Source: Pelomyxa schiedti | Taxonomy: Eukaryota; Protista; Evosea | Assembly (NCBI GenBank): GCA_020536535.1 | Contig: JAHLWZ010000291.1 | Location: forward strand, 131,524-195,523 | Direction of reading: 5' to 3' | Length of the DNA stretch: 64,000 nucleotides | In this document: piece by piece, positions 7,891 to 61,261 of the stretch | Layout: each line of letters begins with the position of its first letter | Position numbering within the stretch: the stretch's first letter is position 1 | Translations under genes and position numbers: made by a program | The notes under the pieces: generated by a model | What the model saw: the letters and a program-made list of their open reading frames with translations, nothing else | What the model was told of the DNA's origin: nothing | The model's database searches: none

Positions 7891-9904
7891 CTACAGAACA
7901 AGGGGGTGTTGGTCACCACCAGTCTGTATGTTGCCTTCATTGTTGTAGGGGAGGTAGGTGTCTCCAAGTCCATCTCCGTTGGTGTCAGTTCCAAGATAGT
8001 TATTCCAAAAATTCCCGGCTATTTCCGGTCCTTGTATAATATTTGGTCCTGTGATGGGTGGGTCAATAGCCCACTTGACGGATGTACAGGAAGAATCAGC
8101 TGAGGCTGTTCGGGAGTATTTATCATTGGAATAAATTGCGTTGTTGAATACAGAGCTTGCAGTAGTTGCTATCAAATGGATACCCCAGCCTAGAGCGATG
8201 CCGCTTATCGTGTTGTCACTCACAGTGTAGCCTGCCTTCAGGTTAATTCGGATATGGAGGGAGAAAACCTGTTGATTCAGTGTGGTCATCAGGTAAATTG
8301 AGATAGTAAAACTGAGAAGAGGGAAAGTGATCCAGGCCGTCTGTGTGCAAGTACAGAGCATCTTTCAAGTTTCCTTGAAAGAAATTTCCTTGGATAGAGT
8401 TCCTCTGGCCATGGTCAATTTCAATGCCATTCCTTTTGTTGAACGAGATCTCGTTTCCCTGAGAATATATGAACTGGCCAAAATGGATACGCATGAAATA
8501 CTTCAACAATGGTTCCATCATGAGAGTACCCAAGCCAAAAGCCGTAGTTGGAAGAGGTCGCTTTGTTTTCTATGAAGTGATTTCCTCTTGGAATGTTAGA
8601 AGCTTTCAAACCAGGTCAAAGACTGTACGTTGAGAAAGTGGCCTCAAAGGCGTTTGCTCCAGCACTGGAGCAATCGTTGCCTTGGACTACGTTATTATCG
8701 CTAATCTATCGTAACTGAAACAAGTTAATAAAGTTGCTCGAATACCTCGGGATGCCCCACTCGTTTCCAATGAAAAATCCATCCCCACAATCCGTAGCAC
8801 TGTTTCTTAGGATCTTGTACCAAGTGAACGCTTTCTAAACATATGTGGTATGATATTACCTTATTATCTGAGGAACCTTGAACAAGTAAAATACCAGCAG
8901 AGTCCCCAAGATTACTTCTAGTATTTCTGTCAAAGAAGCTATTCGAGATTGTATTAGTTCTAGATCCGGAAAGATGTATCCCTGCGTATAGTTCATGGAA
9001 GTAAGGAGAGTTGAGTTGTGTACCCCATCCGGTATTATCTGTGGCATTGCAGGAGTCAATTGTGCTCTGAGTGACGGAGTACATATCAAACCTTTCATGT
9101 GATGAGTGCTCCTTCCCACCCCACCAAGTTCCATACCCATTTTCTTGCTGGCAAGCTCTGCATTTGCTTAGATAAGCATTTGTTACATTATTGAAAAAGA
9201 ATCCTAAAATAGGTTGAGAATTTAATAGCTTGTGGTTTGGGTACCGCCGCCTAGATTTGTGTGATCAGCGAGGTTTGGAGAGCAATTAATGTCGAGCCTG
9301 TAAATCGGTGGGATTTGGCAAATTGGAGAAAAGGACTACCAAGGAGGAGAAGAGCCTTGAGACTGATAGAGAGCTTGGGAATAAGGAAAATGAAAACAGT
9401 GAGAAAATTACATTTGGGTCCACCCAATTCGTGGAGGAATCGACTTCGAGAATGGTAACATCAGATGAATCAGTAACAATGACACTGGGATAATCGTTAT
9501 AGTCTTATAACTGGGGTTAGAGCTCACCCATAGAAGTAATTCTGCAAATAGCCAGAGAGAATAGTGACATTTGTTCTCCCAGATATCGAAATGCCCTGGC
9601 TGATTTTATAAGGTGAATAAAAAGTGTTCCTGGGGAAAAACACTTCTGCCAAGAACTTCCTTTCAAAGTTGCATGATTCTGCAACCTCCAGTTAGTTAAC
9701 TTTATCATCCAAATGAATAGAAACCATATCCAAGACCAGGTCATCTCCAGTGATAAAAATTCCATTTGGAAGTGCGTAAGAGCCCTCAGTCAAAACCGTA
9801 CTCGTGCTTATGGACATCCCATCATAAGGAACCACCTGGCACCCAACATACTCCATAAATACAACCGCTGCCACGACAACTCCCAACCACCAATCCCACG
9901 TCAT
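7891..9904 (-). CDS. Secreted right-handed parallel beta-helix protein (NosD/CASH-like), multi-exon
   Basis: Signal peptide MTWDWWLGVVVAAVVFMEYVGC; PbH1-like repeats (GIHLSGSRTNTISNSFF, GILLVQGSSDNK, GIEIDHGQRNSIQGN); C-terminal GNFWNNYLGTDTNGDGLGDT motif. Confidence 0.75.
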
Positions 9905-12302: not shown

Positions 12303-15300
12303 ATGAGAAGGCACGCCAACGAGAGGTTTGTGCGACACAAAATCGCGATTCCTCTCCCTACTTCCGCTCGTTTCGCATTTTTGTTTTTATTTGTGTATTG
12401 GTTATTGGTTAGTTTTTTGGGGAAATACCTTTGCTCCTTTGAGACTCTTACCGCTGGTTTCAACACAGATTTTTGGTGGCTGTAACTGGTACTAGTTGTA
12501 AGTTCCCGGCAGCAAGAAACATCGACGAGTATTATGAAGTATTACATAGTTGCGCCGATGCCGTGAGGCAGGTTCCGGCATACAAATTCGACACCGGTGT
12601 GCACTGTACTCCTGGCAAAATAAAAACGCCGTTTGCTGGGACTCTGGAGGAGCCAGTTACTCATTCTGATGCTTCCTTCTTTGGACTATCTGGGAGGGAG
12701 TCTTCCTTTCTGGGTCCAGTTCAGCACCAGTTGTTACAACTTTCTTGTGAGGCCTTGGCAGATGCCGGTGAACCGTTTCCGCGATCAAGTTCTCCCTCAA
12801 CCAGCAGAGAAGTTCTTCCTGGTGGCGCATCAACTGGAGTGTTTGTGGCAAGCTTCGGAATAGATTGGCCAGTGATACTCATGCTTACGGAAGCAGACAT
12901 ATCTCCTTACACTTCCAATGGGGCCGCACTGGCAATGTTGAGCAATAGGCTCTCCTGGTTCTTTGATTTTCGTGGCCCCAGCGTCACCGTAGATACCGCC
13001 TGCAGCGGGTCAATGGTGGCCCTGCATTTAGCCTACAGTAGTATGAGAGCTGGCGAGTGCTCGTCTGCTCTTGTGGCAGCGTCTAATCAGCTGTTGTTGC
13101 CGCAGTTTGCGATGGCCGTATCCAGAGCAGGGATGACTACAACCTCTGGAAGATGTAACACGTTTGGCTCTAATGCGGATGGTTATGTTAGAGCGGAGGG
13201 TGGTTCAGCATTCTTTTTGAAGGTTGCATCTCGAACCTAAATATAGTTAACCGAAAGTTAAATAACCTAAATGAATTGGAAATAAGTTCCAAAAACTGAG
13301 ACACTATTAGCCTCTAGCTGACGCTGTGGCAAATGGAGACCACATCTACTTCGTAATTTCAGGTACTGCTAATAACCACGACGGCAGCAAGCAGTTCATC
13401 AATCGGCCATCTTCGACGGGGCAGATAGCAGTACTCCAGCAAGCCCTCCATGTGGCTCAAGTGGATCCAACAGAAGTTTCATACATTGAGGCGCATGGAA
13501 CAGGGACACCAGTTGGTGATCCAATTGAAATTGACACCCTAAGGACAGTATTTTCAAATGCAGAGAGTTGTGGCAAGAGAGGCCCATGTTTTGTTGGTTC
13601 CGTGAAAGCCAACATTGGACATACTGAGGCAGCTGCGGGATTGGCAAGCCTCACTAAAGTCATGCTTATGATTCAGGTAACAATTCGAGTTTCCTTTTTA
13701 CCGGACTAAAACGATACAAGCATGATGAAATATTCCCACAAAGACCAGTGCCGCTGGATCCACATATCAATTTTGGGAGTCTCTCTATTTCATGGAAGGG
13801 TGAACAGTGGAGCAAGATTTCTTCCAAGAAGGTTGCAGTTGTGAATTCATTTGGCTTTGGTGGCAGCAACGCAACAGCAATTATTGAGGAGTACAAGGAG
13901 CCAACCGGTGATGATAGTATTTTGGAAGAGAACCCTTCTGATGAGAAGCCATTTTATTTTGTGCCAGTATCTGCTCACAACAGCACTGCTCTTGCTGGGA
14001 GTGCCAAGAAGTGGCACTCGTTTCTCTCTTCAACCTCTTCTTCTTTGTCCGATATCATTTACAGTGCTGGTAAGCGCTCAAATCACTACTGTCAGCGTCT
14101 TGCTGTTTTTGGCCGCACAGCTGGGGAAATTGGGACAGTTTTGAATAACTTTGAGCAAAATTCAAAGCAACAAGAAGAAACTTGGAGAACTGGCGCCTCT
14201 CAACTTCAAAAGAAGAACAACAAGGTGCTATTTGTCTTCTCCGGACAGGGACCCCAATGGTATGCAATGGGGAGGCAATTATTCACTGAAGACATTGTGT
14301 TCCGTGAGGCCCTTACCAGAGTTGACAGTATAGGGAGAAAGGTGATGGGCTGGTCAGTTATTGAAGAGTTACATAAAGCCGAGTCCGAATCACGAGTTAA
14401 TCAGACACAATTTGCTCAGGTTCTGATCTTTGCAGTTCAAATTGGACTGAATGCAATTTGGCAACACTGGGGAATCATTCCCGACGCTGTTACTGGGCAT
14501 AGTGTTGGGGAGGTTGCTGCGGCTGTTGTCTGTGGTTACCTTACCTTGGAGGAGGGAGTTCTTGTGATAAGTGTAAGGTCCCGCCTTCAGCAGGGAATAA
14601 GTGGGAAAGGCCGAATGCTTGCCGTAAATATGTCGGCTTCCAAGGCAGAACAAGTGATAGCCTCCGTAGAACATGTAGATATAGCTTCTGTGAACAGTGC
14701 CGATTCAGTTGTTTTGGCAGGGGATCCTGAGGCTTTGAAAGGCATAGAAAACTCTCTCAAAGCTCAAGATCAATTTGCCAAATTTCTGCACGTTCAAAAT
14801 GCCTTCCACAGTTACCAAACCGAACCCCTGAAAGAGCAATTAATACAGGAACTGCAATCTCTGGCACCAGCAGCTCATCCCAAAATCCCAATGTATTCTA
14901 CTGTACTGGGAAAAGTCTTGGTTGACCCGCCGGGACCAGATTACTGGTGGAGAAACGTCCGATGCAGTGTTTTGTTTTATCCTGCTGTTTTATCTGCCTT
15001 GGCAGATAAATTCAATGTCTTTGTAGAGTTATCGAACCATCCAGTTCTCTCAATGTATCTGGCAGGAACGGCTGTGTCAACACCAAAGAACCCATCTTTA
15101 ATTGTCCATTCAATTGAGAGAAATAAGCCCGAACGCCTCACAATGCTATCGAACCTTGCCTCTCTTTATGTCAATGGCATTTCTACACTGAATTGGGAAA
15201 ATCTCGCTAAGCATCCACTTGTCTCTGCTCCACGTAAACCCAGGTGGATTAGAATACCTAATGCCCCAGTTTGGCAAAACATTGTGCAAATCTTTGAACC

Positions 15301-18300
15301 GAAGCAATTCAACAGCTACAAGCGAGGGTTGAATTCCACACACAACATATTGGGATCCCGTGATGATTCCCCAATTCCCTCCTGGAGTAATGTGGTTGCT
15401 CTTAATTTGTACCCATGGATTTCAGACCATAAGGTAAGCGCAGGTGAGGACATTGTTGTCCCTGGTGCCTTCTACGCTGAACTGGCAACCCTTGCAGCAA
15501 GAGAGGTCTTCAAAACCAATCAAGTTCGAGTAGCCAACCTCACCTTCCACAGTCCTGTTGTGTTATCCCCAGACTCGTATGTAGAATTCAAGTGTGTAGT
15601 GACAAACTACCACTCTGCTTCCAAGAGTATGGGGTTTGAAGTTCATACCAAAGCGGAATTGGAGAAAGCCCTATCCAAGCGAGCATCTTGCACGATAGAA
15701 CTTGTCACTACCCCTGTTTCAGTACCGAATTACGATATCTCGGCACTCAAGACAACTTGTAAATTGCCAAAGGGTCATTCTGCTGTGTACAAGGCATTTT
15801 CAGAAATGGGACTGAACTACGGGCCACTCTTCTCTCCCATTTCGAAGATATTCGTCAATAATACAAGTTATGACGAAGCTGTGGGGGAGCTTACGTTCCG
15901 CAATAGTGTAATAGATTCCCTCGCACAAAACTCCGCTCTGCACCCAACTGTGTTGGACGGCTGTTTTCAGTGCATTATCGGAGGATTGCTGAGCTTACCT
16001 GATCTTCGGGGATCCAGCATTCTTCTTCCTGCCTCAGTTGGTGATCTTCAGATTCATGCTCCTCTTAGCGCTGCTGACCAGCACCTTGACTTTCAGGTCA
16101 ACATAAAGGATGAAAGTCTGCTTCCCCGGTACGGCACTGAGCAGGAAGGACGACTGTCTGAGGCGGTATTAGAAAACAGACACCTGGTGATGTTATGCAA
16201 ACACTATTCCGCACTTTTTTGCAAAAGTGTGGGCGACACAACGGACTGGATTCCAAGCAAGCAAAAATATATCAACTGGCATAGAAGTCTTTCAGAAGGT
16301 TTTGAAAGCAATGACGAGATTCTTGCGCATCCTTTCAGAGTCATGAGTATTGAAGCAGACCTGATAAGAAGCATAGGAAGCAGACTGGTCGAGGTTGTAA
16401 AGAATGCCGCCTCCCTTTTCGAAGATGACAAGCTTTCGAAATTTTACACCAACTCTGTTACCTGCAATATCAACACAACATCTTACCCTGTGCTGCGGAA
16501 ATTACTCCAGTGTGGGAAGAGAATCAGGATTCTGGAACTAGGTGGGGGTACAGGTGGTGCCACAAAGCAATTTTTACCTATATGCCAAGAGGCCTACACA
16601 AATGGCTGTGACGTGGAGTACATCTTCACAGATGTCTCACCATTCTTTGTGAGCAACGCAAAAGAAATGTTTGCGCACCTCCCTTTTGTACAGTGTACGA
16701 CTTTGGATATCTCAAAGCCGTTCCCAGAGGAAATTAGGGATGTAAATATCGTTATAGCTTTTGCAGTTGTCCACGTTGTCCCTGTAGTTGGAGTGATACT
16801 GTCACGGATTTTTGAGGCCCTATCTCCAGGCGGTATCCTCCTCCTCACTGAGCCAACCAGGAAGGATTTTGTATTTTTCAATTTTGTGTTTGGATTATTT
16901 GACCAATGGTGGGCAAATGACCCTTCAGACAGAGACCACGTTTGTTTAGACAGAGGGGAATGGACCAAACGCTTGTTAAGTGCAGGATTCTCTGACGTGA
17001 TTTCTGATACAGCAGGGCCAAAGGGCCTTGAGTTGGCCTTCTCATCATTTTTGGCTCAAAAACCAATCACAGCTACGCGGTCTTTTTCTTCTCTGTGGTG
17101 CCACACAAAAATCCGCGATTTTGTTCCCCAGAAATCATTGGTTGGGGATGCTGTTCTGATGGACGCGACAGGAAAGCCTCTAGTTTCCATCAAGAATTTG
17201 ACTTTGAGCAGCGTTTCAAACAAGCCAGCTAACGTTTCAATTGGGAAGGAAAAGTGGGTACCAATTCCGCTGAGTGCACCCGAAGCACTCGAAATTCCAT
17301 CCAAGAACGGAATTCTACTTCTACTGTCTTCCCAAGAAAGCCCACTGTCTACGGCACTTGCCCGCTCCATGAATTTGCATTATGAAAGAATAGTTGCAAT
17401 CCAACAGAGCCCCAGATACGAGATGATTGGGGATGTAATATCGTTAGATCCGTTGAATAAGGATCACTGGGTCCAACTATTTAAATCAGTTGGCAAATCT
17501 ATCCGTCATATCATTAATACATGGCCTGCAGCACACTACAAGAGTCAAGAAGTGACTAGTGAAGATTTGACGAGAATATCTTTAGAAACTACTATGCACA
17601 TCGCTCACATGTCTACTGCCCTGAGCCAAGCTGATATCTCATGTGGAGTGGTTGTGGTTACCCAGGGGGTCCATGATCCTCAGGAGAAAAGATGCCACGT
17701 ACCAGCAGTATCTCTGTTCTCCATAGGTGGTGTGGCACGTGTACTTTGCGCAGAAACATCACTGCAGGTTAAGGTTGTGGATCTTGATCCCTGCAATGAT
17801 ATCAGTGATTCTGTAGCCCAAATTGCTCAAGAAGTTGTTTATGGATGGAAGGTCCCATTTGATACTGAAGTGTGTATCAGCAATTCTCAGCGATTTTGTG
17901 AAAGAGTGAACTTCTGTGATTTCAAAGAGGGAGCTTCTCAGTTACAGCTGCAATCTGATCCTATTTCCACTGAAGAAGGATGGGAAGTGCAACTTGATGA
18001 TGCTAAGAACATCTCCTTTGTGAAAATTGATATTGGTAGGGCACTGGCACCAAACGAGGTCTGCACCGAGATGAAGTACATCGGCCTAAACTTCAAAGAT
18101 TTCTTGATCTCACAAGGCCTCCTTGGCGTGGAAAGAGCTACCGACCACTGGCACAAATACGGCAAGCTTGGCCTTGAGGGGTCGGGTGTAGTGAGGCGAG
18201 TAGGTAGTGCCGTCACCCATGTTAAACCCGGAGATGAAGTTATTGTGATGACCCGCTTGGGGACACTGTGTTCACACTTAATTTCCACCTTCTACTCCGT

Positions 18301-21300
18301 TTTTCCGAAGCCAGACACTTTGTCAGGAGAAGAGGCTTCTGTATCTATGCTCCCGGCCTGGACAGCTATATACTCCCTTGTGCATTGTGCAAAGGTGAGA
18401 AAAGGAGAATCTGTTTTTATTCACTCGGCCACTGGAGGAGTAGGCCTCGCCTTCATTCACCTAGCGAGGTCCCTAGGATTAAAAGTGTTCGCTACAGCTT
18501 CTACAGAAGCAAAAGTAAATTACCTCAGTGAAGTTCTTGGCTTAGAGCATGTTTTAATGGCGAAAGACCCAACCCTTGTCAAGAAAGTCATGGATTTGAC
18601 AGATGGTCGAGGTGTGGATGTTATAGTCAACCCCTACACTGGAACACTCGCAGAACAATCAGTGCAACTTCTTGCAAGTAACGGCCGTTTCATTCAGCTC
18701 ATCCCTGGACAACAATTACCAGTGAGTACACTATCAGAGAATCAGTCTCTCCACGTTGTTGAACTGTCAAGAATTCCAGACCAAGAGATATTTTATGAGC
18801 TTAGCCCGCAGATTCTCAAATTTGTGTCAACCATGTCCAGGGTTCTCCCAGTTAAAACTTATGATGTCTCCCACTTAAGAGATGCATTGGATCGATTTAC
18901 CAAACCAGATCACATTGGAAAAGTGGCCATATCTCTGGGTGACCATGCCGAAGTCGATATTAAACCCATGTGTACGGGCCACTCGTGGATGTGCCATTCC
19001 AACGCATCCTACCTTGTCTGTGGTGGTTTGAGTGGGTTTGGCTTTTCTGTTGCCACTTGGCTGTACTATCATGGAGCCAGAAATCTCGCACTGGCCTCAC
19101 GAGAAGGCAAGCCAAAAACTGCTTTTGAAAAACAAACAATCGAGTGGCTTAGAAGGCATGGGTGCAAAATTCTTTGCCTTGCACTCGATGTGTGCAACTA
19201 TGATTCAGCCTTGGCCACAATCAAAGTGATAGAAAAAGAGATGCCGCCAATTGAAGGAGTGTACCATAGTGCCACTTTACATGGTGATTGCTCTCTCTAC
19301 AACATCACCAATGACAAGTTTAGTCGTGTTTGCTTCCCCAAACTCATTGGCGCATGGAATCTCCATAAAGTAACGCTCTCACATCCGATCAAGAAATTTG
19401 TTATGTTTTCATCAGTTTCGTCTCTCTTTGGTAGAGGCGGGCAAGCACCATATGTGGCTGGAAACTATTTCATGGACAAGTTCGTGCAGTACAGGCACTA
19501 TCTTGGATTACCGGCTTTGTCGATCCAATGGGGTGCAATTGGCGAGTCTGGAGTTTTAACTACATCTCCCTGGATGGCAATGTCCTTGGCTGCTGATGGT
19601 GTTAACCAAGTGCCAGCTTCTCAGGCGCTGGACTGCCTATATTCCCTGCTCTCTTGCAAGGAATCTGACACACCTTTTGCGGTGTTCTCCATTGACATGA
19701 ACGTATTTTACACAAGCAACAAGGCTACTTTGAATTTAGCTCGCTTCTCTGAGAACCAATTTGTTGATGAAAGTGTTCCGAAACTTGTCTCAGGAAGTTC
19801 TTCTGTTTTTTCCCTATTAAGAGCACGTATTGCGAAGGCCCTTGGGATTGAAGAACAGACAATTGGAGAAGACATGGTTTTGGCTTCTCAGGGAATAGAC
19901 AGTCTTGTCGCTACAAGTTTGCGAACATGGATTATGTCTGAACTGGGTGTTAACATTTCTCCGTTGAAATTACTGAGTGGCGTTTCAGTGGGAGAATTGG
20001 CAGCAGAAATTTCGGGCTTGCGGGGCGAAGTGGCTTCAGACAGTTCCACGTCACCTCAACCTGCCTTAGGTGATGAACAACAAGCCCCTCCACAACGGAA
20101 AGAGTCTGCAGCTACTCCCGCGAAACAAGAAGATATCCTCCCCAAAGAGCTTGCTCCCAAAGTTCCGGCAGAAGTGACACCTTTAGAAGCAAGTCCCGCG
20201 GTAGTGAGCAGCTCTGATGCACCTCCAGCCAATTCCACTACTCACTCCCCACATCGGCGGGCCTTGTTCGAGTGGCCTGCCCCTCAAAAACGCCGTATTT
20301 CCTCCTTCACTGTTCAGTTGAACAAAATGAGGTCTGCTGGAATCGTTATGCACCACTTGGACATTGATCACTACGGTAAAAATAATAAAGTCACCTTCAG
20401 AAACGCCCCAGGGTCTTCGGGTGAGCTAAAGACAGCACTGTTGCTCCAGTCAAATAACTATCACGGTTTGTACAATGATCCAAGAATGATTACGGCCAGT
20501 CAAGAGAAGGCCCTTATCAGTTCTCTTGGCAGTCCCCTCCAAGCAGGAATTCTTCCAGATCAATCAGCACTGCAATCCGAAATTGCAGAATTTTGTCACT
20601 GTGAAGGAGCACTTATTACTCCATCTGGATTCACTGCTAATCTTACTCTTTTATCAGCGGTTGCTCAACCTGGTGACTACATTTTCAGTGACGCACTTAA
20701 CCATGCCTCAATAAACGACGGTTGCCGTCTATCCGGGGCCACAATTGTTATATACAAGCACATGGATTACTCCCATCTGGAGTCTCTCTTACAAGATACT
20801 CCACAAAACGCAGGCAAAGTTATAGTCACTGACGCAGTATTCAGCATGGAAGGCCACATTGCGAATCTACCTGTGCTAGACACACTCGCTCGGAAATATG
20901 ACTGTGTTCTTGTTCTTGACGAAGCTCATTCAATGGGAGTACTGGGGGCGACGGGTAGAGGCATTGAGGAACACTTCCACATGTTTGGATCTGCCCATTG
21001 GAAGACTGGAACTCTAAGTAAGGCCATATGTTCTCTAGGAGGCTATGTTGCTGGTGAGTTTTAGTTTTACACTTTAAGTGAGTTCTGACAATTTCACAAG
21101 GTCCAAAGGATGCTATTGATTGGCTGGTGTACAATTCACGCCCTTATGTATTCAGCACGGGAATATCTGACATGCAGTGTAAAATTGCTCGCACTGGCTT
21201 ACGGATTATCCGAGAAGAACCCTGGAGAGTTAAAATGATCCAAGATAAAGCATCAGCCTGGAAGAAGGCACTGGAGGATGCCGGCTTCGTAACTTTTGGC

Positions 21301-21885
21301 ACCAACACCCCGATTGTCCCCATACTCATAGGGGACGATGAGACATGCATCGCATTCTCTCGCAGGATGCTTGACTGCAATCTCTTCGCCACGCCTATCA
21401 TTTCTCGCTCGGGCTCAGTTCCCCCGGGGACAGCCAGAGTCCGCACCAACGTCAACTCACACCACAATATGACCGAGCTCCTCCGCGCTGCGCAAATTCT
21501 CAAGTCCATCAAAGCAGAGTTCAAGACTTTCCCTGGAGACCCAGCACCACTCGGGTCAATCCCGCCGGCAGTTCCCATGACATTTGACACCCCTGATGAG
21601 CCCTCCACGTCGCTCAACACCTCTTCGCACGATGATATCATCCACGAAGAAGAAGAAGAGCAAGAAAGCGGATTCATCGCAGACCCGCCGCAGGCTCAAC
21701 ACCTCAGGAGAAGAATACAAGAGCCGAGCGACGAGCCGATGGTAGCGAACTACGACCCGATAGCAGCGAAAATGTCGCAAATGGGATCTCTGGAGACCAC
21801 CACCAAACCACCGCACTTCCAGATCTCCTCCTCCACCAACGCGCGAGTACCTTCGTCGTGGCTTAACTGGTGTTCCGTAATGTAA
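12303..21885 (+). CDS. Highly reducing iterative type I polyketide synthase KS-AT-DH-cMT-ER-KR-ACP fused to a PLP-dependent alpha-oxoamine synthase (AONS/SPT/KBL family); ~3086 aa; exons 12303-12325, 12469-13222, 13311-13676, 13721-21053, 21101-21885
   Basis: KS DTACSGS / EAHGTGT / NIGHTE; AT FSGQG, GHSVG, AFHS; DH His in DHKV..VVPG and LDGCFQ; MT ILELGGGTGG; ER IHSATGGVG; KR GGLSGFG and YVAGN; ACP GIDSL; AOS SNNYHGL, NHASINDG, DAVFSMEG, DEAHSMG, GTLSKA. All four introns are GT-AG and preserve the frame (9261 nt total). Exon 1 is the least certain. Confidence 0.93.
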
Positions 21886-39707: not shown

Positions 39708-40987
<1,280 letters not shown>

Positions 40988-41394
40988 GCTCCTGTACCAC
41001 CACTTCCAGACAACAACCAGAGAATACAAATGGACTTTTCATTGAGCGATTAACGGGAAGAGCAGGAGTCTTGTTGAATGTGGTAAGCACTGGGCTCTAT
41101 CCCCCTTCCTCTCATTCCGCGTTGTTGAGCCACTGGTTTGGCAAACAACTGCAGGAACAGACTAGGTTTGGGGAAAAGGACACCCTTTGTACCTGCCAAG
41201 ACACACTAATTCCCGTGTTCATGAAGTTCAGGTTTTCTTCTGGTTGTTGGCCAACAGAACCATTTTGAATATTAAAAAAAAAACTTTCTGTTTATCTTTT
41301 TTTCCCAATCTGCCTGCCTTGGCCAGGGTACATGTGATGTCGGTGATCAAGTTATAAGAAACCAAAAAAAATTGGTCGATTCAAAGGAAAAAAA

Positions 41395-44300
41395 ATGTTC
41401 GGTCGCAAGAAGACGAAGGGGTCCGGGGAGAAGTCCACGGCCAGCGCCTCCGCCGCGGCGGCCTCGACGCCGGCGCCGCCCCCGGCCAGCAGCTCCATTA
41501 GCACGCCCAAGCACTCCCACCACCGCCACCACTCCCACTCGGACGACGAGCGAGACGACGACGACGACGCAGCCACGCCCACGTCCGCCTCCGCAGTCGA
41601 CGAGCCCGCGGCGGTCCCCAGCGCCAAGCCCGCGTCGTCGTCGACGACCACGAGCGCCACCACCACCCCCTCGTCGTCTCCCCCATCGTCCAGCCTGGCT
41701 CCGTGCAAGGAAGACCCCCTCCTGCACCCCTCCGCGGCGGCGGCCGAGTCCCCCAGCGACCCCTCCGCGTCGTCCTCCTCCTCGTCCTCGTCCTCGTCCA
41801 CGTCCGCCTCCGCACCCGCCGCCACCACGGCGGCGGTGGTACCTGGTGTGAAGAAGGTGTCGACGCCGGACCCGAGCCGGACGCGGCGGTCCAGCGTGAC
41901 GTCGTCGACGCCGTCGGTGCTGGCCGGGGGCGTCAGCGCGTTTGGGGGCAAGATGGACACGGAGCCCGACCGCATCCAGAGGCACTACTACCAGATTGTA
42001 AATCACCTTTGGCACCAGTTTGGTTCCACTTTCCCTGGCTTGAAGTTGGTCTTCTCTGGGCCTGTCACCCTCACTTTGACAGTTCCTTCAGTTTGTTTGT
42101 GGTTTTTTTTTTTTTTTTTTTGACCCCACCTAAGAAATAATGTGCTCGACATTATATAATGTCGTTAAAATTGTTGTGGTTAATCATATCTTCTAGAACT
42201 CAATTACGAAAACTGTGAAGTTTGATCTAAAGATGACAACGACTGAAGTACTTACTCAGGTTTGCTCTGAAGAGTTTTCTTCTTTTATTTTTTTTTTTTT
42301 ATAGTGGTGTTAGATTGTCAAGGACTTGGGGAAAAAAGTTGTTGATCAGGACCCTTCATTGTATTGCCTATATCTACATGTGGGTGGTTTGGCAACCCAA
42401 AGCAGGTTTGTATTCTTCTCGTGTTATCTGATGGCAAATTCACTTTCAAACAGCACATCTCCAGCTGAATGTTACAAAATGATGGATGGTGCACCCTTAT
42501 GGCTTTTCCACTTTACATCACATGTATTTCGATTGGCATTGCCTTCATTTATAAGCATTTACGCCATAAAAGGATGCTGTGGAAATCCGAAAAAAACCTG
42601 CAGTGGAAGTAGAGGATAGTGTTCTGCTGAAGGTCTTGGTACCAGAGCAAAAAGTGAGCTGTACTATAAAATTTCCTGTCCTTTCTACACTCGAGACTGT
42701 CTTGCAGGTGGGCTGACAAATTTCTTTGTTGCTGGACTCAATCCATTTTTTATTCACTTCAGGGCGTTAATCAATTCAACTGGAGTAACCTTGACGTACA
42801 GTATTTACCAATACTGTCCAAACATCTCAAATATTATTCCCTTCTTTATCTTTCTCCAAATCAAGGATGGACTGTCCTTGAAGACCACCTCACACTACAA
42901 CACTACAGCCTTCCAAATTTGGTAACTTTTTTATTCTATCCACTGTGAACTGACGACAAGCCAAGTCCATTGTAGTATTAGCTCGCAAGCCTCTTCTAGA
43001 GCTCGAATACGAGCGCGCATCAGGTCCAATTGAGGATTACATAAGGTACCATCATATTATTTTCGTTTTATTTTTCACACTTAGTAGTACCTGTGAAACA
43101 GACATTGCCTCAAAAAGTAAGAAGGTCACTTTGAATCTGGAAGAACCGATTGGCGGTACAATGTGCAACCTCGTTAAATGGTCTGAAGCAATGTACGGAG
43201 CTCCCCATTTGCTGCATTGAGTTTCTTTCTCATGTTCGATTTTCAGGTTTGGAAGCATTCCTTGGACTGTACAGGAATCAGCAAAAAAAGGTAGGACCCC
43301 TACTTTTTTTTTCTTTTTAAAGACAGCATCAAAAGAAGTCTTGCCAGTCAAACCAGCAAAGATAAAACCCAAGAAGTCCGCTCCTTCATCCCCTCGCCTT
43401 GTATGTGTTACTTGAAATGCTACTTCATCACAATTAAGCATGGATAGTCAAAATCAGAGAGTGATGAGGAGCCTGACGACGACGAGCCTGATGACACACC
43501 ACACAAACCAGAAAAACCAGAAAAACCGGAAAAACCACCTGTTGTAGCTAGTATGTAAACACTCTACTGTATTATTTCCTAACTGAACGCATCTTTTTGC
43601 TAGAGCCTTCTCGAGAGTTTTCAGATGACGAAGATGAAGATACCGGAACAAAAAAAGTTGGTAATACCACTACCCGTCTTGTTTATCCTTGTCACTGGGT
43701 TTAGAAGCGCCAAAAACTACATCTACTGCAGCTTCCAGTCCGACCTCAACAACAACAACTTCGAGTAACTTCTCAGTACAAGCGTTTTCCTTACCAACCA
43801 CTAGGCAGCTTCGAGTTTCAGTTGTGTGTTTATGGAAATAGCCTGGACTTAGCATCCACAATGGATGAAATTGACTGGAAGATTGGGGTTTGTGACTTCC
43901 TTTTCGCCAACTTTTAACACGAAAAAAGCAAGTTCTAACTCTGAAGATGGGCAAAAACGCGTTAGAATTCCTTGTAACCTATTGTCCCTCAGCAGAACTG
44001 CAAGATCAAATAGCTATCCAAAGTATGAACCGTCTGTACTTCCTTCTACTAACATTATGAAAGCTGGTATCGAACTGGAAGGGGAAGAAATTGTGATTGA
44101 TATTGTAACCCATGTGAGGCATCTCTATATTCCTGCCCCTGCTACCTCACTTACCACCCCTGTCATTGTTATGGGCTACATGTTTATCACCAATTACCAA
44201 CTAGTCTTCCGAAGCTATCAAAATTCACAGGTCACTTTCTTTTCGTTTTGCCTCGTACTCATTTTCGTAGAAAGATGAAATAAAAATTCCGCTTGCATCT

Positions 44301-50830: not shown

Positions 50831-53053
50831 ATGATTGGTTGGACAAAAACCTGCGCAGGTTGACGGCACTTGTATTCTTGTCCACTGTCACTTTCACTTT
50901 GGCTCTGTGTATTTCTGTGTGGCACAAGTCTTCTGTGAAATCCATTTTATGGACACTGTTTTGCTTGTCCCTGCTGGTGGTTGTTACAAATCATGGTTCC
51001 ACTGTTCAGGTAAGACTGCCGAAACGGAATATCTTCAGTATAATGAAGCATCTTCACATAGCAACACGGTGCCTATAACCTTCTGGGGTTCTTTTTCTTT
51101 TTCCTTCCAGAGATTTTTATTGTTTCTGTGATGCGATGCTCATTTTCCTTCTTCCGTACTCGTGTATTTCTAAGGTTATTTCCCTTGAAAGAGAAAACGG
51201 TAACAACTGTAGATACAAACGTGTTCTGCTTGCTGTGGGAGTTGTTTTACTCCTTTTTTTTTCTTATATCCTTCTGTCAAGTAGCTCCAACTGGGGTGAT
51301 GGGTTGTTTGCCAGGAAAATGGAACCTAGTTACAAGGTTGCCTTTCAGTTTGTTTTTCCTTATTGATTTGAAATTCATGAAGGCCTGCCCCATTTCCTAC
51401 CCAGTTATTTCTTGGTGTGTATATGGGCCGCAACTGACACACTGACCTGTCCCACAGGGATCAAATTTACGAGGTTTCAGCACCTGTCTCATTTTTTTGT
51501 GAGTCACACAGTTTTGACTTCAGAGTACCATTGGCAAAGCTTACTCTTACTGGGCTTGGAGGAGATGCCCTGCAGTTCCACAATTCTCCACTCCGAGTTC
51601 AAACAACACTGTGACTATTGATTGCCCTGCTGATCGCTCTGCATCATACACAGTTCTACCTCTTCTTGAAGGAAGGCTGGGAAGATTCATGGGGATTTAT
51701 GTTCAAGAGAGGACTGTAGTCAACAAATACAATGGTCCTTTCCCCCTAGAAACAGATGCTGCTATTGCAACTTGTGGGGCTGATCACAATGTGCATATCA
51801 CCTGCAACCGAAATCCCGATGTGATTGAGAGGCTGACTTCTCCAAAGAATGGACACCAACACTCCCCATCACCCCTTGCGGGAGCAGTTCCAAATATCAT
51901 ATTCGTCTTTGTTGATGCTGTCTCCAGAAGTGCGTGGCACCGCAAGTTCTCATCCACACTGGCTTTTTTGGAAGGACTAAAAAACAGCCCCAATGCAGAG
52001 GTGTTCCAGTTCTTGCGATTTCACTCCATTGCACATAAAACCAGGGACAACAGCAGAGCAATGTTCACAGGAAATATTGAAGACCCTTTCGCCACTATTT
52101 GGGAGTTGATTGATGACAAATACGTAACAGGCATTGTTGACAACACTTGTCACGAGTGGTCGGCAAAGTACATATTCTTCGTCTTCCTCCTCCCACAAAA
52201 TCAGATGGAATTGATTTCTTATGTATCCGCAGTTATCTCTTTGGTCGCTCTTCAATTGCTGACCACAGGCTGAATTCGCTGTGGTGCACACCCGAGTACA
52301 ATGGAAATGGAAGAATGGAAAGCTACAATCTCCTCCGGGGGCCGTGGAGTGCACAGAGAAGGTGCATTGCCGGGCAACTTGTTCACGATTTGGCATTCAA
52401 GTACGCCAATCTCTTCCTTGATGCTTACAAAGACCAGCAGAAGTTCTTACTTCTCAAGGTGGTTTTACTGCCCCATCCGGCTTTTTAACAACATCAGTTC
52501 ACAGAGGGCCATGAACCAACCGGAATGATTGTGGGGATGCTCGACGACCCTCTTGCGACGTTCCTCTCCACGCTCGATTTCAACACCACCGCTTTGATCA
52601 TGGTGTCTGACCATGGGCTTCACATGGGCCCCCTTTTCAGCTTTGGATTGACCTCCCAACTCGAGAGCCTTCTCCCTGGTTGGTTTATGGTGCTGCCCAA
52701 ATGGTGGCTTGGCGGCACCAGGTCACAAATTCTAATGTGTGTTTGTTCACTTATTTTACACAATGACTCTAATGGCAAAAACACAGGGAAAACGAGCAAG
52801 CACTGGTTTCTCCTTATAGTGTGCATCATTTTCCTTTCCCACCGTATTCCATCCTCTAAACATTCAAGACATATTCGCCACTGTGTTGGAAATTGCCGGA
52901 TTTGACATTCCTACTAAGGTCAGCACAAGGTCTCACTTTGCCCAGAGCGTTGCATCACACAACCTAGTAGCCAATTCGTGCCTGTCTGCTGGTATCCCTC
53001 AACACCTTTGTCTGTGTGAGGTTCACCCCAGCACTAACCTTGTGCCTCTGTGA
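50831..53053 (+). CDS. DUF229-like protein of the alkaline phosphatase/sulfatase superfamily with N-terminal TM helices, multi-exon; start approximate
   Basis: PNIIFVFVDAVSR, FQFLRFHSI, TALIMVSDHG and C-terminal CLSAGIPQHLCLC are DUF229-type motifs; hydrophobic N-terminal exons. Confidence 0.65.
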
Positions 53054-53086: not shown

Positions 53087-56000
53087 TCACAACAAGGAAG
53101 AGACACTGTGGAATTGGAGCGTGACAGTTACGTACTTGGGTGGGGTGGGAGGCGGGGCGGCAGGGGGTTGGTCAGGAGACACGAGTACGAAGTTGCAACC
53201 TATTGTGTTCGCAAAGTTGGTTTGGTGACTGCTTTTGGGTGTTTACCTGGCGGTGTGAGGAGCTCCGCTTCTGTCAATCCAAACCAAGAAAAGCCAGTGA
53301 TGTCATACGCAAGAGGTGAACGAACTTCCAGCAGCAACCCCCTCTGTCCTTGCATTGCAGTAAACGCCACCGCCACAGCCCTGTTCCTTGAAATGCTTGA
53401 GAATCCGTACCAGCATATATTGGTTGAGCGGCTTTGTGATAAGTAGGTCTCCCACGATTCCGGCAGCGTTCCAAACCCGCGGTAGGCTACTACGTCAGTC
53501 ACAGGCTTGAGCTTCGCGAGTGCGGTGAGGAGCAGCTTTGTGTATGGCTTCCATGGAGCCAATGATGCATTCGTTCTGTGTGGATCCCTCAGTGCCCAGT
53601 TCAGTGCTGCAAATACTTTGGGCTTATTTTTCGTGTAAAGAACAATAGCTGCAGCTTCTTCTGTTGTCATTGGCTCACCAACAAAGGAACCATTTCCAGA
53701 TGCCCTCGTGACCAGACCCTCCTCTATGACCTTGGTCCTGCAAAGAGCCACGGCATCAGCGAGGTACTCTGCTGTGCACCCAACTTCAGAGTGCAAACCG
53801 AGCAATGCAGCGCCGAGGGAAACTGTGGGCACACCCTGCAGAAGGTTCACAAGTGGCGGAAGAACGATGGCGTCACTCAGACCGGCATCAATCATGATGG
53901 TGGCAAGCGGTGGGGCCTGAAGCTGCTCACTTATCTCCGGACTGCAAACGATAAAAACGGAGCCATCACCGCCGTCCTTCACAATGCCAAAAGATGGGTC
54001 CGTATCAATGCGACTCATGCAAAGTTGTGTCAGGATGCTTTTAAGCACTGATTGCGATTCGTCAGTTCTTTTGAACCTGCCATTCGGGGAAAAAAAAATG
54101 GGTGAAGCAAGTACGCTTAGCCAGAGAGTTAAAAAAAAACACACTTGTTGAGCTTCTTTGCGTGAACATGGACGCCCCTCCACACTGCGTCAAATGTTTC
54201 CCCATAAAAATCATAGTAAACATGCGCCTTCAACTCTGGGATTCCATAAACAAACCCATTCGCACTGGCCAACCCAAGAAGTTTGCTTGACACAGCTAGT
54301 GTCAGAGAATCCCTGCTTGTGGGTTGCGTTGGATTCCACCTTTTGAGTATGGCGGAAAGTTGGCCCGTTTTTGCTGTCACAAGAATGCTGGCATTATCAA
54401 TGAGCTTTCTGGAAAGTTCCTTTCCCACCCTGTTGCCTTCCTTCACGGGGTCAATGCACCTGAGGCACTCTTTGGAGTGTGACTCCTTCCATTCCGTGTC
54501 ATACGTGCATACAGCTTCTCTGATCGCATTGGCAGCAGGGAGTATTAAAAAACCAACATAGAGCGTAAGGGGTATCACAATCTGCCATATTGGGAATCTT
54601 GATTCATCACATGATATGCAGTCGACAAGGTTGTTGTTGATCAGACGAAGGTGCCTCGACAGTGGTTTGAAGAAATTGGAAACAAACTGTCTCCACATCG
54701 GCTTCAGAGCGGCCCACAGATATCGGTTGAATGTAAACTCTGTGCTCCTTTCAACAGCCTGAGGCCAACTGAGCAGAATGCCCTTGCTTTGGCTTGCTTC
54801 GAAGACAGCTTCCTTGGCAATGACATCTATTTTGACCAAAGTGTCTCTCGCTGCCTGCTGCACCAAATTCGAGCATTGGGATATGATACCATTTTCCCCT
54901 CTTTTCAGCTGCTGGACAAAACATTTGCACGTCGCGATTCCGTGTTGAAGTTCTCCAAAAGAGATCATTGTGTCAGCATACGTTCCACATGGACCGCATA
55001 TCCCCTCACAGCATCTCAAAATCGTGGTGTCCAGTGTCCGTCCAATAAGTGCTTGCAATCTTCTTTCAAAAATTTGGGACAGCTCTGCGTACTTTGGTTG
55101 GTTTGTGACTTCTTTCCCGCAACGTATTCTGAGAAAACGAAGGGCAGAGAGTTCAGCCCAATAAGGGGAGGTTGTCCTGACAGGGTAGTGTAGCAGAATG
55201 TCTGGGGCAAGAGCTTTCAGTTCAGAATAAAACGCATCAAGCACCATGTCAGGAGGTTCTTGGTTAACCTCCACTTCCTCTTCAAAAAGGGTGTCCACCT
55301 TATTCCCAACGAAAAGAATGGGCACAGACTTTTGAATCCCAGTCTTGAGCAGCGTCTTGATGGCATCAACGTCTTCCCCTTTGACCGCCCCAGAGTTGAT
55401 ATCAAGAATGTAAATTGCACCAACAACGGTTTTCAAGGCGTTCATTATCACCGCATCCAACTCCTTGTTCTCACCAAGGCCTGGAAGGTCAATGAAATCA
55501 AATCCTGAAACCGGAAGCTTGGTTTGTGCTGCATCTTCTTTGCCAATGGCATTCGTTTCTCTCTTTGCAACATGGGGGAGGTACACCTCCACAACCGAAG
55601 ACGCCCCACTTACCCTTTGGTCCGCACTCAATGCCACGGCCTTATGTGGCAGCTCTCCGGTGAATTGGATCGGACCCTCGGTGACTGTTCCATCAGGGTT
55701 TTTGATGGTGTACTCCCTCGTATCTCCTGCCTTGATCACGGTCACACGACTTGTGCACTTTAGCTTCCGCGAAGGTAGCACAATATCTCCCAGTATTGCA
55801 TTGCAGAGCGTGCTTTTCCCAGCCTTCATGTCACCCAGAACTGGACTGGCAATTAGAGGTTCCAGAATCTTTTCACTTGATGTAACATACTGGCAATGGC
55901 AGCTGCTGGCCAAGGATACTCAGCAGGTTCACTACTCTTTTCTTGTGTGTGAGTCGTTGGAAAGAAAAAATAAAAGAGGTACATTGCATAGAACACGTGT

Positions 56001-57600: not shown

Positions 57601-60600
57601 ATGGATTCTTGTGGAAAGGACCGGTTCGTTCCACAAGAATCCTGCATCACTTCTTTTTGTTACAACTTCCTTCTTAAACCATTCAAGGAACAAAAAGTTG
57701 TTGTGCCGACCAAAACCAATGTGGTGGGGGTATTTGGACCAAGTGTTACCACATCCAATTCAACTGACGAGATGGAAGGCTCATTTAACGGGCCAAATGA
57801 GGTAGAGGCAGAAGCGCCTGAGGAAACTGGCATCCCCACTTCAATGGTAGATACGGCTTGCAATAGAACCTTCTTTTTCTCAGGTTGTTTTCGTGTATCC
57901 ACTACCCAATATTTATGATGCTTCAGGGTATCTAAATGGCTGGTTTACAACGTTGAGCGACATTTCCCTCCGTTGGCGATTTGTAACCAGTCCCTTTTTT
58001 TCAAAAACAAAGTCAGTGACAAACATCACAGGGAGAAATACTCGTCGAGGAAATAGCCTATGTTGGGCTGACTGCAGATGTCACCGAATACAAACTTGAT
58101 TCATTTTACATCACAACAAAAGCGAGTGGTATCAATTTTCATCTTCTTTTTTCCCTCATTCTGAAAAGGAATTTGGGACTTCCAATCGATTTCGGAGCAA
58201 GAGACCTCACAGTGGCTCAAGAAGTTCAAGGAATTAAAGAAGCCTGTGTTTGACCCCAGAGTCACTGCATCAGATGCGGCGGTAGAAAGAAGGAGGGTGG
58301 AGATTCATTATGATGAAGAAGCAGAGAAGAAGGTGTCCTTGGAAGCCATGATTGAAAACTTTGCGCAGACCAAATCTGAACTGTCGGCAATACATTCTGT
58401 CACACATGACACATGTAATGTAAGCCCCTCCTTTTTTTTTCCCCAGAACTGGCTAGTGCCACTCACTGCACTCCATATACTCAAAAGAGTGGTCCCAAGT
58501 ATCTGTGGCCAGCAGCCTCTGTTGCAAGTGTGTATTAATTGAAAAGATTCTGTGACCCCTAATCACCTCACAGTTCTGGGAGACATGAAGGCCGGGAAAA
58601 GCACACTCTGCAACGCAATACTGGGAAACATCACTTTGCCCTCCAGAAGGCTGAGGTGCACAAGCCGGGTGACAATCATCAAGGCAGGAGCCGCAAGGGA
58701 GTACGTCATCCAGAACTCTGGCGGGGTGATCACTGAGGGCCCGATCCCGTTCACTGGTGAGCTGCCACCAACTGCTGTGGCGTTGCCCTCAGACCAAAGG
58801 CTGAAGGGTGCCTCGTTGATTGTGGAGGTGCACCTCCCTGTCGAGCCTGGAGCACGCCTTCCAGTTCCTGGATTCGATTTTGTTGACCTTCCAGGCCTCG
58901 GTGAGAGTAAAGCGCTCGATGCCATAGTTATGAACGCCCTGAAAAAAGTCGTTGGTGTGATTTACATCCTTGATGTCACTTCTGGAGCGGTCAAGCAGCA
59001 GGATGTTGATGCAATACAGACGTTGCTCAAGTCAGGGATTCACAAGTCTGTTCCCATTCTTTTCGTTGGGAACAAGGTGGACCGGCTAGACAACGAAGAG
59101 GAGGAGAACCAAGAGAGTCCTAAGACTGTGCTTGATGCATTTTACGCTGACCTGAAAGCTCTTGTTCCTGACCTGCTGGCACGTCATCCCGATAGGGAGA
59201 CTTCCCCTTATTGGGCTGAACTCTCTGCCCTGAAGTGCCTTGCGATACGTCGTGGGAAAACCGTCAAAAACCAACAAAAGCATAAGGAGCTGTTTGATAG
59301 TTTTGGTAGGAGGTTGCAGGGGCTGATTGGACGCACTCTGAATACCACGATTCTGGGAGGCTGTGAGGAAATATGTGGCCCCTGTGGAATGTATGCCGAC
59401 ACCATCATCTCTTTTGGAGAAGTCCAACACGGAATCTCCACATGCCGCAGCTTTGTCGAGCAGCTGAAAGGCAAGGAAGAAGAAATAATACGCCAGTGCT
59501 CTGCTTTGGTGCAGCAGGCAACAAGAGACACTTTGGATGACATGAACGTCATCGCCAAAGATGCTGTCACACAAGCAAACAAACACAAGTATATTCTTAT
59601 CAGTTGGCGCCAGGCCATGGAAGAAAGCACTGAGCATGCCTTCAATCAACATCTGTGGGCCACTCTGAAACCAAAGTGGAGACAGTTCGTTGCCCATTTC
59701 TTCAAACCTCTCTCAAGGCACCTTCATTTGGTCAACAACAACGTGGTCGACTCCATATCATGTGACGAATCAAGAATCCCATTATGGCAGATTGTGATAC
59801 CCTTGGCGTTGTACGTTGGAATTGCCGTGATTCCTCTTACCAACGCGATCAGAGAAGCTGCGTGCACGTATGACAATGAATGGAAGGAGTCGTACTCCAA
59901 AGAGTGCCTCAAGTGCATCAACCCTGCGAAGGAAGGCAACAGAGTGGCGAAGGAGCTTGCCAGGAAGCTCATTGAGAACGCCGGCATTCTTGTTAAAGCA
60001 AAAGCGGACCAGCTTGCTGCCATAATGGAAGGGTGCAACCCCGCCCAAACCATAGGCACAGATGCTCTGACAGTTCTCGCATCAAGCAAACTGCTTGGGC
60101 TGGCAAGTGCCAACGGGTTTGTTCATGGAATCCCAGAGCTGAAGGCACAGGTCTGCTCTGATTTTTATGGTGATACATTTGAGGCAGTGTGGAGAGGTGT
60201 TCCTGTTCACGCAAAGCGGCTTCACAAGTATGGTTTTCCGACCGTATCTCCACCTTACTAAATTCTTCCTCGCATAGGTTCAGCCCGGAAACAGGACCCT
60301 CAGTGCTGAAAAGCATCCTGACACAACTGTGCACAAGCCGCATTGACATGCACCCATCTTTCGGCATTGTGAAGAACCACAGTGATGGTAACATATTTGT
60401 CATCTGCAGTCCAGAGATAAGTCCTCAGCTGCAGTCCCCGTCACTCGAGGCCATCATGAATGACGTTGGTCTGAACGACGCCGTGGTCCTCCCACCGCTT
60501 GGGAACATCCTTCAGAGCGTGTCCATGGTCTCCCTTGACGAGGCTCTGCGGGGTTTGCACCCCACCATTGGGTGCACAGAGGAGTGCCTGACAAACGCCA

Positions 60601-61261
60601 TTGTACTTTGCAGGACCAAAGTAATCGATGAGGGTCTTGTCACGAGGGCATGCGGCAATGGCTCCTTTGTTGGTGAGCCACTGACAACAGAAGAGGCAGC
60701 AGCCATTGTTCTTTACACAAGGGACAGCCCACAAGTGTTTGCAGCAATGAACTTGGCGCTGAGGAATCCCCACAGAACGAGTGCCTCACTGGAGCAATGG
60801 AAGCCATACACAAAGCTGCTCCTCACCGCACTCACAAAGCTCAAGCCCGTGATAGATACCACAGCCTATCGGGGTTATGGAACACTGCCTGAATCGTGGC
60901 AGACAAAGTTCTCACCACACCGTGAAACCAAGATATGCTGGTATGGATTCTCAAGCATATCCCGGAGCAGGGTAATTGCTGCCGAGTTTGCTGCAATGCA
61001 AGGACAGAGGGGATTGCTGCTGGAAGTTCGAGCACCCCTTGCGTATGACATCACCGGCTTCTCTTGGTTTGGATTGACAGAAGCGGAGCTCCTCACACCG
61101 CCAGGTAAGAATAAAGTTAGTTTAAGTTTCCAAACCAGCTCAACCACAAACCACAAACCACAGGATGCAACTTCACACCCCTGTCGCTTGACGACTCGTC
61201 ACCCAAATATGTCTCTGCCACAATCCAATTCCACAGTTACTCTTCCTTGTTGTATGAGTAG
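57601..61261 (+). CDS. PH-like + dynamin-like GTPase + kinase N-lobe remnant + NAD:arginine ADP-ribosyltransferase fusion protein (paralogue B), ~1100 aa, about 8 exons; start approximate
   Basis: Same motifs and intron positions as paralogue A. Frame-preserving introns include 57884-57926, 57983-58031, 58420-58487, 58528-58573 and 60228-60277. Confidence 0.8.

Follow-up and report, generated by a model that had tools for sequence, protein, structure and literature searches.

That a polyketide synthase (PKS) can make sphingoid bases was shown in bacteria only in 2025, for a two-protein system in which PfSgaA and PfSgaB of Pseudomonas fluorescens MYb115 produce C24–C28 sphinganines from serine (PMC12134224). 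In fungi, the Fum1 and Alt1 chains are described as being released onto alanine or glycine by an alpha-oxoamine synthase (AOS) (PMC4936691). Here we describe a gene from a 64,000-nt stretch of the Pelomyxa schiedti genome (contig JAHLWZ010000291.1, positions 131,524–195,523 of the forward strand; hereafter the window) that is predicted to encode a complete reducing PKS and an AOS in one polypeptide. Judged by its sequence, the gene is real, intact, intron-containing and eukaryotic. Its putative chemistry is known and its layout is found in bacteria; what appears to be new is the eukaryotic host, an AOS clade of its own and a predicted prenyl anchor.

SgaA plus SgaB is the best functional model, sharing with the window protein a single-module reducing type I PKS, release by a pyridoxal phosphate (PLP)-dependent AOS and a Ser gatekeeper. 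The bacterial system differs, however, in consisting of two proteins with a clustered reductase (SgaC) and in having no CaaX end. The methyltransferase region of an SgaA-like homolog is decayed, whereas the C-methyltransferase (cMT) of the window protein has intact motifs, and an SgaB-like AOS is 30% identical to the window AOS and falls in another clade of the best tree, with a union of the two clades not rejected (p 0.071, see below). Fusions from Planktothrix (WP_042158693.1), Stanieria, Blastopirellula and Limnospira come closer in layout, with ketosynthase (KS), acyltransferase (AT), dehydratase (DH), enoylreductase (ER), ketoreductase (KR), acyl carrier protein (ACP) and AOS domains in the same order in one chain. 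These, in contrast, are ~27–35% identical to the window protein and have neither introns nor a CaaX end, and those included in the tree lie in the SgaB/RkpG or another bacterial clade; we found no characterised product of a bacterial PKS-AOS fusion in the literature. AOS domains are also fused in RedL-type proteins.

A first-pass annotation of the window, made from the letters and open reading frames (ORFs) alone, had set the locus against three further systems. The fungal Fum1 plus Fum8, Alt1 plus AOS, sphingofungin and myriocin systems resemble the window protein in being eukaryotic and in pairing a highly reducing PKS that has a cMT and no thioesterase with AOS release, but there the two enzymes are described as separate, clustered proteins with tailoring genes (PMC4936691, PMC13612406), and the fungal SphA is distant (E 7e-16). 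SxtA, of cyanobacteria and dinoflagellates, does carry a fused AOS: an ACP joined to a class II aminotransferase, with a methyltransferase, and in the eukaryote nuclear-encoded. It is set apart by its description, as its MT-GNAT-ACP-AOS order includes no KS, AT or reductive domains and thus no means of chain elongation (PMC3097229). The Dictyostelium steely and other dictyostelid PKSs are likewise amoebozoan iterative type I enzymes with a fused release enzyme, but the steely end is a type III PKS, namely chalcone synthase, and the part of the source available mentions no AOS end (PMC3188802). Serine palmitoyltransferase (SPT), whether the bacterial homodimer or LCB1/LCB2, has the same fold and the same PLP and amino-acid residues as the window AOS; it uses free acyl-CoA or a separate ACP, whereas the window AOS is fused to its ACP, scores below the SPT cut-offs and lies outside the LCB2 clade.

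Gene model and domain architecture

The gene occupies 12303–21885 of the window, and its predicted model has five exons and four GT–AG introns (Table 1). The spliced coding sequence of 9,261 nt (3,086 aa) runs from its ATG to its stop codon without an internal stop. Long ORFs in the region span 12443–13240, 13658–21064 and 21082–21885, and all four introns are required for the reading frame, because none has a length divisible by three. The splice model is based on this frame and on a colinear homolog, P. schiedti KAH3766105.1, which aligns full length and without gaps at the three internal splice junctions; across the first junction the residues N-[ED]-R-F-L-V-A-V are matched by homologs, including KAH3766393.1 (P0413). 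Breaks in tblastn alignments to the homolog reflect the introns of the window, not the gene structure of the homolog. Two of the four donors, those of introns 1 and 2, lack a purine at +3. The fusion of PKS and AOS is not a splicing artefact, since the ACP, the linker and the AOS through its PLP lysine share a single 7,333-nt exon; the part of the AOS that depends on splicing is its last third only. GC and GC3 are even over the PKS and AOS parts (0.44, 0.47).

Table 1. Features of the PKS-AOS gene (window positions; motif and residue positions under Remarks).
Feature	Position	Strand	Remarks
Exon 1	12303..12325	+	ATG, 7 codons + 2 nt; N-terminus agrees with homologs across junction
Intron 1	12326..12468	+	143 nt, GTTTGT...ACAG
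Exon 2	12469..13222	+	N-terminal part of KS, catalytic Cys in DTACS (12992)
Intron 2	13223..13310	+	88 nt, GTTGCA...TTAG
Exon 3	13311..13676	+	C-terminal part of KS, both His (EAHGTGT 13488, NIGHTE 13611)
Intron 3	13677..13720	+	44 nt, GT-AG
Exon 4	13721..21053	+	7,333 nt unbroken: KS end, AT, DH, cMT, ER, KR, ACP, linker, AOS past PLP lysine
AT	14231..15181	+	GHSVG 14495, Arg, NAFH (AFHS 14801)
DH	15341..16069	+	His (DHKV), Asp (HPTVLDG)
cMT	16415..17077	+	Tyr, ELGGGTGG, His (VVHV), Glu (LTEPT), aligned to CurJ/PksCT-type cMTs
ER	18044..18931	+	LNFKD, HSATGGVG
KR	19004..19543	+	GGLSGFG, Lys, Tyr (YVAGN)
ACP	19814..20011	+	Ser 19901 (GIDSL 19892)
ACP-AOS linker	20012..20302	+	Pro/Ser/Ala-rich, 37% identity to homolog
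AOS	20303..21522	+	QSNNY Asn 20447, gatekeeper Ser 20531, NHAS 20699, FSMEG, DEAH 20918, PLP Lys 21020, ARVRT Arg 21433
Intron 4	21054..21100	+	47 nt, GT-AG; splits AOS
Exon 5	21101..21885	+	AOS C-terminal domain, low-complexity tail, stop
W-C-S-V-M	21868..21882	+	predicted CaaX prenylation box (CSVM 21871–21882)

A Pfam scan of the protein recovered KS, AT, DH, methyltransferase, ER, KR, PP-binding and Aminotran_1_2 domains in that order, and found no thioesterase or other release domain. This is the architecture of a highly reducing iterative type I PKS, a single KS-AT-DH-(cMT)-ER-KR-ACP module with its active sites intact. By alignment, every catalytic residue checked in the PKS is present, and KAH3766105.1 likewise retains the KS Cys/His/His, the AT Ser/Arg/AFH, the DH His/Asp, the nucleotide motifs of ER and KR, the KR Lys/Tyr and the ACP Ser. 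Intact motifs of this kind are a sign of activity. The AT is presumably malonyl-type, given its AFH motif. As the module is single and the window contains no partner PKS, we infer that it is used iteratively. The cMT has CurJ, PsoF and the citrinin PKS cMT as its top matches among 11 solved structures in the PDB. For the homolog as searched against the PDB, the dictyostelid Pks16 (9nju) ranks third. A hydrophobic peak at residue 1391 was considered as a transmembrane segment and rejected: it falls within the methyltransferase core and is absent from the homolog.

The first-pass annotation thus had the start, the end and the domain content of the gene right, a complete reducing PKS followed by an AOS in one protein, and its GHSVG, AFHS, ACP Ser, NHAS, DEAH and PLP Lys sites stand. 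Of its introns, numbers 3 and 4 hold, but it had missed 1 and 2, and its AOS domain (~20400–21530) extends slightly further in the 5' direction, to about 20303. The eukaryotic, amoebozoan setting that it proposed is borne out by the introns, by eukaryotic neighbours and by nearest homologs in Pelomyxa and Mastigamoeba.

The AOS domain, its relatives and the C-terminal box

The AOS carries the residues expected of its family: the PLP Lys, the PLP-stacking His, the Asp/His pair, the Asn and the C-terminal Arg. In Sphingobacterium multivorum SPT, the residues reported to contact PLP and the amino acid are N52, S81, H138, S185, D210, H213, T241 and K244 (PMC10196870), and by alignment the window AOS matches them. 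The position of V79 in ThAOS is described as Val in 2-amino-3-ketobutyrate CoA ligase (KBL), Thr in 5-aminolevulinate synthase (ALAS), and Ser in 8-amino-7-oxononanoate synthase (AONS, BioF) and SPT (PMC11906848). The window AOS has Ser there, as SPT and BioF do, rather than Val or Thr; this makes an enzyme confined to glycine less likely, though it leaves serine and alanine undistinguished. The domain is expected to work as a homodimer.

The top long-protein match to the AOS region is KAH3766105.1 (P0004; 3,099 aa), which is colinear with the window model and 73.5% identical end to end. Conservation is highest in the AOS (90%, vs 73% overall), followed by ACP (86%), KS (85%), cMT (83%, Pfam core), AT and KR (81% each), and DH and ER (79% each); identity is lowest in the linker (37%) and the tail (30%). 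The searches did not return the window's own protein, and KAH3766105.1 could be a paralog or, if it comes from a sister species, an ortholog. A P. schiedti paralog, KAH3766393.1, is 64% identical over the PKS part and ends in ACP, condensation (C) and adenylation (A) domains in place of the AOS. In this protein the PKS module gives way to a starter-AT-like region, then to an ACP, a condensation and an adenylation domain, and the model stops within the last of these, so that it may be truncated.

Outside Pelomyxa, the best single-domain match among 1.84 billion cluster representatives is the stand-alone Mastigamoeba balamuthi protein m51a1_g8897 (P0248), 59% identical over the query and 53% over the domain, and a metagenomic fragment of 1,409 aa (P0251) carries ER-KR-ACP-AOS at ~33% identity. 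Homolog searches, within the limits of their word index and length range, recovered no fused PKS-AOS from Mastigamoeba or Mastigella. Mastigella eilhardi does have a thioesterase-ended PKS (P0416/P0532; ER-KR-ACP-KS-AT-DH-ER-KR-ACP-TE, the two ER-KR-ACP blocks being near-copies), which is no close relative of the Pelomyxa-type PKSs. It also has a 922-aa protein (P0253) with two AOS domains in a single chain, resembling the single-chain SPT of coccolithoviruses. Another metagenomic protein (P0247; 2,140 aa) combines an enoyl-CoA hydratase, two AOS and two HMG-CoA synthase domains; both of its AOS domains fall in the clade of the window AOS (98/92), and their His and Ser motifs are altered.

A maximum-likelihood (ML) tree built from 81 of 421 AOS domains, with no fungal, SxtA, ALAS, characterised SPT or SgaB sequences among them, joined the window AOS to that of KAH3766105.1 (support 100/100), then to m51a1_g8897 (100/94), and then to P0247 and P0251 in a six-row clade (100/98). 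Elsewhere in the tree are the KBL rows, the BioF rows and the LCB2-type halves (100/100), with the first half of P0253 among the latter (100/100). The SgaB-, RkpG- and WcbT-like rows formed a separate clade with cyanobacterial fusions (100/100); the rows called SgaB-like and RkpG-like stand for homologs selected on their gene order and not for the MYb115 proteins themselves. In approximately unbiased (AU) tests, union of the window clade with the SgaB-type clade was not rejected (p 0.071), and union with LCB2 was rejected at the borderline (p 0.047); a link to SPT-like rows of Bacteroidota is unsupported (75/61). Because these constraint tests are weak, a separate AOS clade is our best estimate, not proof of an independent origin. 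In the best tree the AOS groups with the Mastigamoeba enzyme, outside the KBL, BioF, LCB2 and SgaB/RkpG clades.

For the PKS part, a FastTree phylogeny of KS domains (101 of 639; no dictyostelid, fungal or animal rows) gave no supported sister for the three Pelomyxa-type KSs, which sit on a long branch, and a separate KS homolog search was dominated by multi-module bacterial PKSs. In a tree of the ER-KR-ACP region (51 of 155 rows), P0251 joins the Pelomyxa-type PKSs with an SH-aLRT (SH-like approximate likelihood-ratio test) support of 94 and a long-branch warning.

The layout itself is widespread. A word-indexed search with the cMT-to-AOS region scored 7,986 candidates, 1,357–4,319 aa long; of its best 120 matches, 33 had an AOS and 30 had both KS and AOS, 29 of them besides KAH3766105.1. 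The named fusions are bacterial (Blastopirellula, Stanieria, Limnospira, Magnetococcales, Vicinamibacterales and cyanobacteria). One protein (P0429) has all eight domains, including the cMT, in a single chain, and a Planktothrix plasmid carries an annotated fusion. Since reducing PKS-AOS fusions are so common among bacterial and metagenomic sequences, the layout cannot count as a new sequence pattern, which lowers the novelty of the locus. A metagenome scan for the AOS gave five distant AOS loci among 40 pattern matches (33–40% identity) and none that was close, and a genome scan gave 80 prokaryotic loci with a best identity of 49%, of which the 79 with a full AOS domain included none in an ORF longer than 700 aa.

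A feature absent from the first-pass annotation is the conserved W-C-a-a-X end of the protein. The CaaX box (Cys-aliphatic-aliphatic-X) is a signal for prenylation. The window protein ends in WCSVM, KAH3766105.1 in WCSIL and P0251 in WCVIS; CSVM, CSIL and CVIS all fit the pattern, with Ser as the first 'aliphatic' residue in two. Among 343 AOS-bearing proteins, C-x-x-x ends occur in eight and W-C-x-x-x in these three alone, which are exactly the PKS-AOS proteins of the window AOS clade, even though the window and KAH3766105.1 tails around the box are just 30% identical. No transmembrane segment common to the window protein and KAH3766105.1 was found, so the box would serve as the membrane anchor and would suit a lipid product; we therefore predict an enzyme anchored to the membrane by prenylation.

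Proposed function and competing explanations

Taken together, these features make it probable that the protein is a one-chain synthase making a mostly saturated, probably methyl-branched, long-chain 3-keto-sphinganine-like amino lipid at the membrane. A phosphopantetheinyl transferase (PPTase), an enzyme that P. schiedti possesses, would load the ACP, and the AT would supply malonyl-CoA. The KS, KR, DH and ER would then cycle repeatedly, with C-methylation dependent on S-adenosylmethionine in at least one cycle. The AOS homodimer would form a PLP aldimine with the amino acid and cleave the acyl-ACP thioester with loss of CO2, and the product may be reduced and N-acylated by unlinked enzymes of the cell or used unchanged. 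Our judgement is that serine has roughly an even chance of being the amino acid, alanine about half that chance, glycine less again, and any other amino acid the least. Release onto a small amino acid by PLP-dependent decarboxylation, as first proposed, fits all residues checked and has a precedent in SgaA plus SgaB; what has become less likely is that the enzyme is the only source of sphingoid bases. The product is more likely to be a specialised lipid or signal alongside ordinary sphingolipids than part of a housekeeping route.

Several observations weigh against this reading. The specificity loop of the window AOS is odd (G-S-P/A-L-Q-A-G, vs the usual G-S-R-x-x-x-G), so that its substrate cannot be read off from SPT, and both fused Pelomyxa-type copies have a three-residue deletion upstream of the loop. 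Scored as two exon pieces and summed, the AOS stays below every NCBIfam cut-off, and the BioF and BioF/Kbl models outscore those for SPT: BioF TIGR00858 gives 212+84 bits (~296) for a cut-off of 426, the KBL model 181+78 for 460, and the bacterial SPT models NF047600, NF047599 and NF047603 give 179+60, 160+51 and 140+22 for 640, 500 and 670. A fold model of the Mastigamoeba homolog (53% identical, used as a stand-in; predicted local distance difference test score 95.7) is a fold-type I AOS, but fits ThAOS, SPT, AONS and KBL about equally (TM-score 0.85–0.89), and this closest AOS relative outside Pelomyxa is annotated as stand-alone and has no CaaX end. Although the window pairs a reducing PKS with an AOS as SgaAB, RkpAG and WcbRT do, their clustered KDSR-like short-chain dehydrogenase/reductase (SDR) is lacking: neither that nor another lipid gene was found among the 259 window ORFs or by tblastn with two SDRs from bacterial PKS-AOS clusters. 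Finally, a curated P. schiedti metabolic gene table lists no acetyl-CoA carboxylase and no prenyltransferase, but the table is selective and these absences are weak (PMC10579272).

If the enzyme instead took over from fatty acid synthase and SPT as the organism's main (housekeeping) supplier of sphingoid bases, one might expect the strong conservation of the AOS, and CaaX anchoring would put it at the working site of SPT. The same curated table includes elongases and lists neither a type I fatty acid synthase nor SPT (PMC10579272), and Entamoeba is described as having no de novo fatty acid synthesis (PMC11340893). Yet that table is a curated one that omits all sphingolipid genes, and ceramide synthesis in Entamoeba is described as depending on a myriocin-sensitive SPT (PMC11340893). 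We regard a housekeeping role as unlikely, because Mastigella, the sister genus, has the LCB2-type SPT protein described above; the failure of our word-indexed, length-limited searches to recover a fused copy from Mastigamoeba or Mastigella also speaks against it. A secreted, non-membrane amino-polyketide, such as a sphinganine-analogue inhibitor or a pyrrole directed at competitors or at symbiont control, is favoured by chemistry shared with the Fum1/Fum8 and myriocin clusters (as described in PMC4936691 and PMC13612406) and by the C-A end of KAH3766393.1 in place of an AOS, which gives the look of a small secondary-metabolite family whose nitrogen-adding ends have been swapped. However, the window holds no biosynthetic cluster and no tailoring, transporter or resistance gene among its 259 ORFs, nor the stand-alone AOS, reductase and tailoring genes of a fungal-type cluster, and the AOS is far from fungal SphA (E 7e-16, vs 1e-38 for bacterial SPT). 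This explanation, which differs from a membrane amino lipid mostly in the fate of the product, we consider rather unlikely.

Synthesis of the biotin precursor KAPA by a single protein, with the methyltransferase acting as BioC, the PKS making pimeloyl-ACP and the AOS acting as BioF, or an AOS that is simply a KBL, would account for the top NCBIfam score, for the BioF-like gatekeeper Ser and for the annotation of m51a1_g8897 as a putative KBL. It is very unlikely, given that the AOS groups with neither BioF nor KBL in the tree and scores far short of the BioF cut-off, that the methyltransferase matches cMTs (BioC in none of the 11 PDB matches), and that no esterase domain was found. For biotin, the P. 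schiedti table lists only biotinidase and biotin ligase, while a symbiont has bioA, bioB and bioF (PMC10579272); the amoeba also has an ordinary Val-type KBL of its own, Pelo_5832. That the gene is an artefact, whether through contamination with bacterial DNA, faulty assembly or the merging of two genes, is hardly credible: the nearest named non-amoebal PKS matches are bacterial and Pelomyxa is described as harbouring endosymbionts (PMC10579272), but four GT–AG introns restore the frame, the flanks are eukaryotic, base composition is even across both parts, the ACP–AOS junction lies inside one exon, and the same fusion occurs in a separately annotated, 73% identical protein.

Flanking genes and significance

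The flanking genes are eukaryotic and include kinases, Sec1, NAP, RasGEF, a ubiquitin hydrolase (USP), actin and myotubularin; the scan covered all 259 stop-to-stop ORFs of at least 75 aa outside the gene and would miss shorter exons. A dynamin-like GTPase ORF followed directly, in another frame, by an ADP-ribosyltransferase (ART; PF01129) ORF occurs in two copies (53203–55919 on the reverse strand, 58543–61298 on the forward strand), which are divergently oriented, as if a dynamin-ART fusion gene had been duplicated in inverted orientation. Exons at 7894–9264 (reverse strand) match right-handed beta-helix/NosD-like proteins, and two exons at 51518–52902 (forward strand) give weak DUF229 matches. 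At 39708–42140, an actin gene is followed by a GC-rich stretch (57–60%) in which both strands hold open frames and Pfam gives no match.

The first-pass suggestion of novelty in Amoebozoa stands in part. We found no description of a fused reducing PKS-AOS in a eukaryote in the full-text literature, which leaves most subscription journals out of reach, while the layout itself is common in bacteria. A full-text search for 'Pelomyxa' with 'polyketide' returned one unrelated paper only, and the words 'polyketide' and 'sphingo' are absent from the main text of PMC8887013, PMC10579272, PMC10711303 and PMC8136499, as are the PKS accessions from the six supplements of PMC10579272. Neither of the two papers on Pelomyxa genomes, searchable supplements included, mentions the homologous PKS.

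A single-chain eukaryotic version would offer a self-contained system in which to study how chain length is set, and an iterative PKS product released, by an AOS, much as the steely enzymes did where release is by a type III PKS. Anaerobic amoebae, which are described as scavengers and elongators of lipids, would also gain a means of making unusual amino lipids de novo, and these may act in membranes, in cysts or in the control of endosymbionts. Possible, though in our view doubtful, is a bolder version in which a prenyl-anchored, one-protein factory makes a methyl-branched or unsaturated sphingoid base from malonyl-CoA and serine without fatty acid synthase, SPT or O2, using an AOS of its own clade with a remodelled loop, in these amoebae and in at least one other microbe whose protein bears a membrane tag of eukaryotic type. 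If so, such a factory would supply the variety of membrane lipids that aerobes gain through oxygen-dependent desaturases and hydroxylases.

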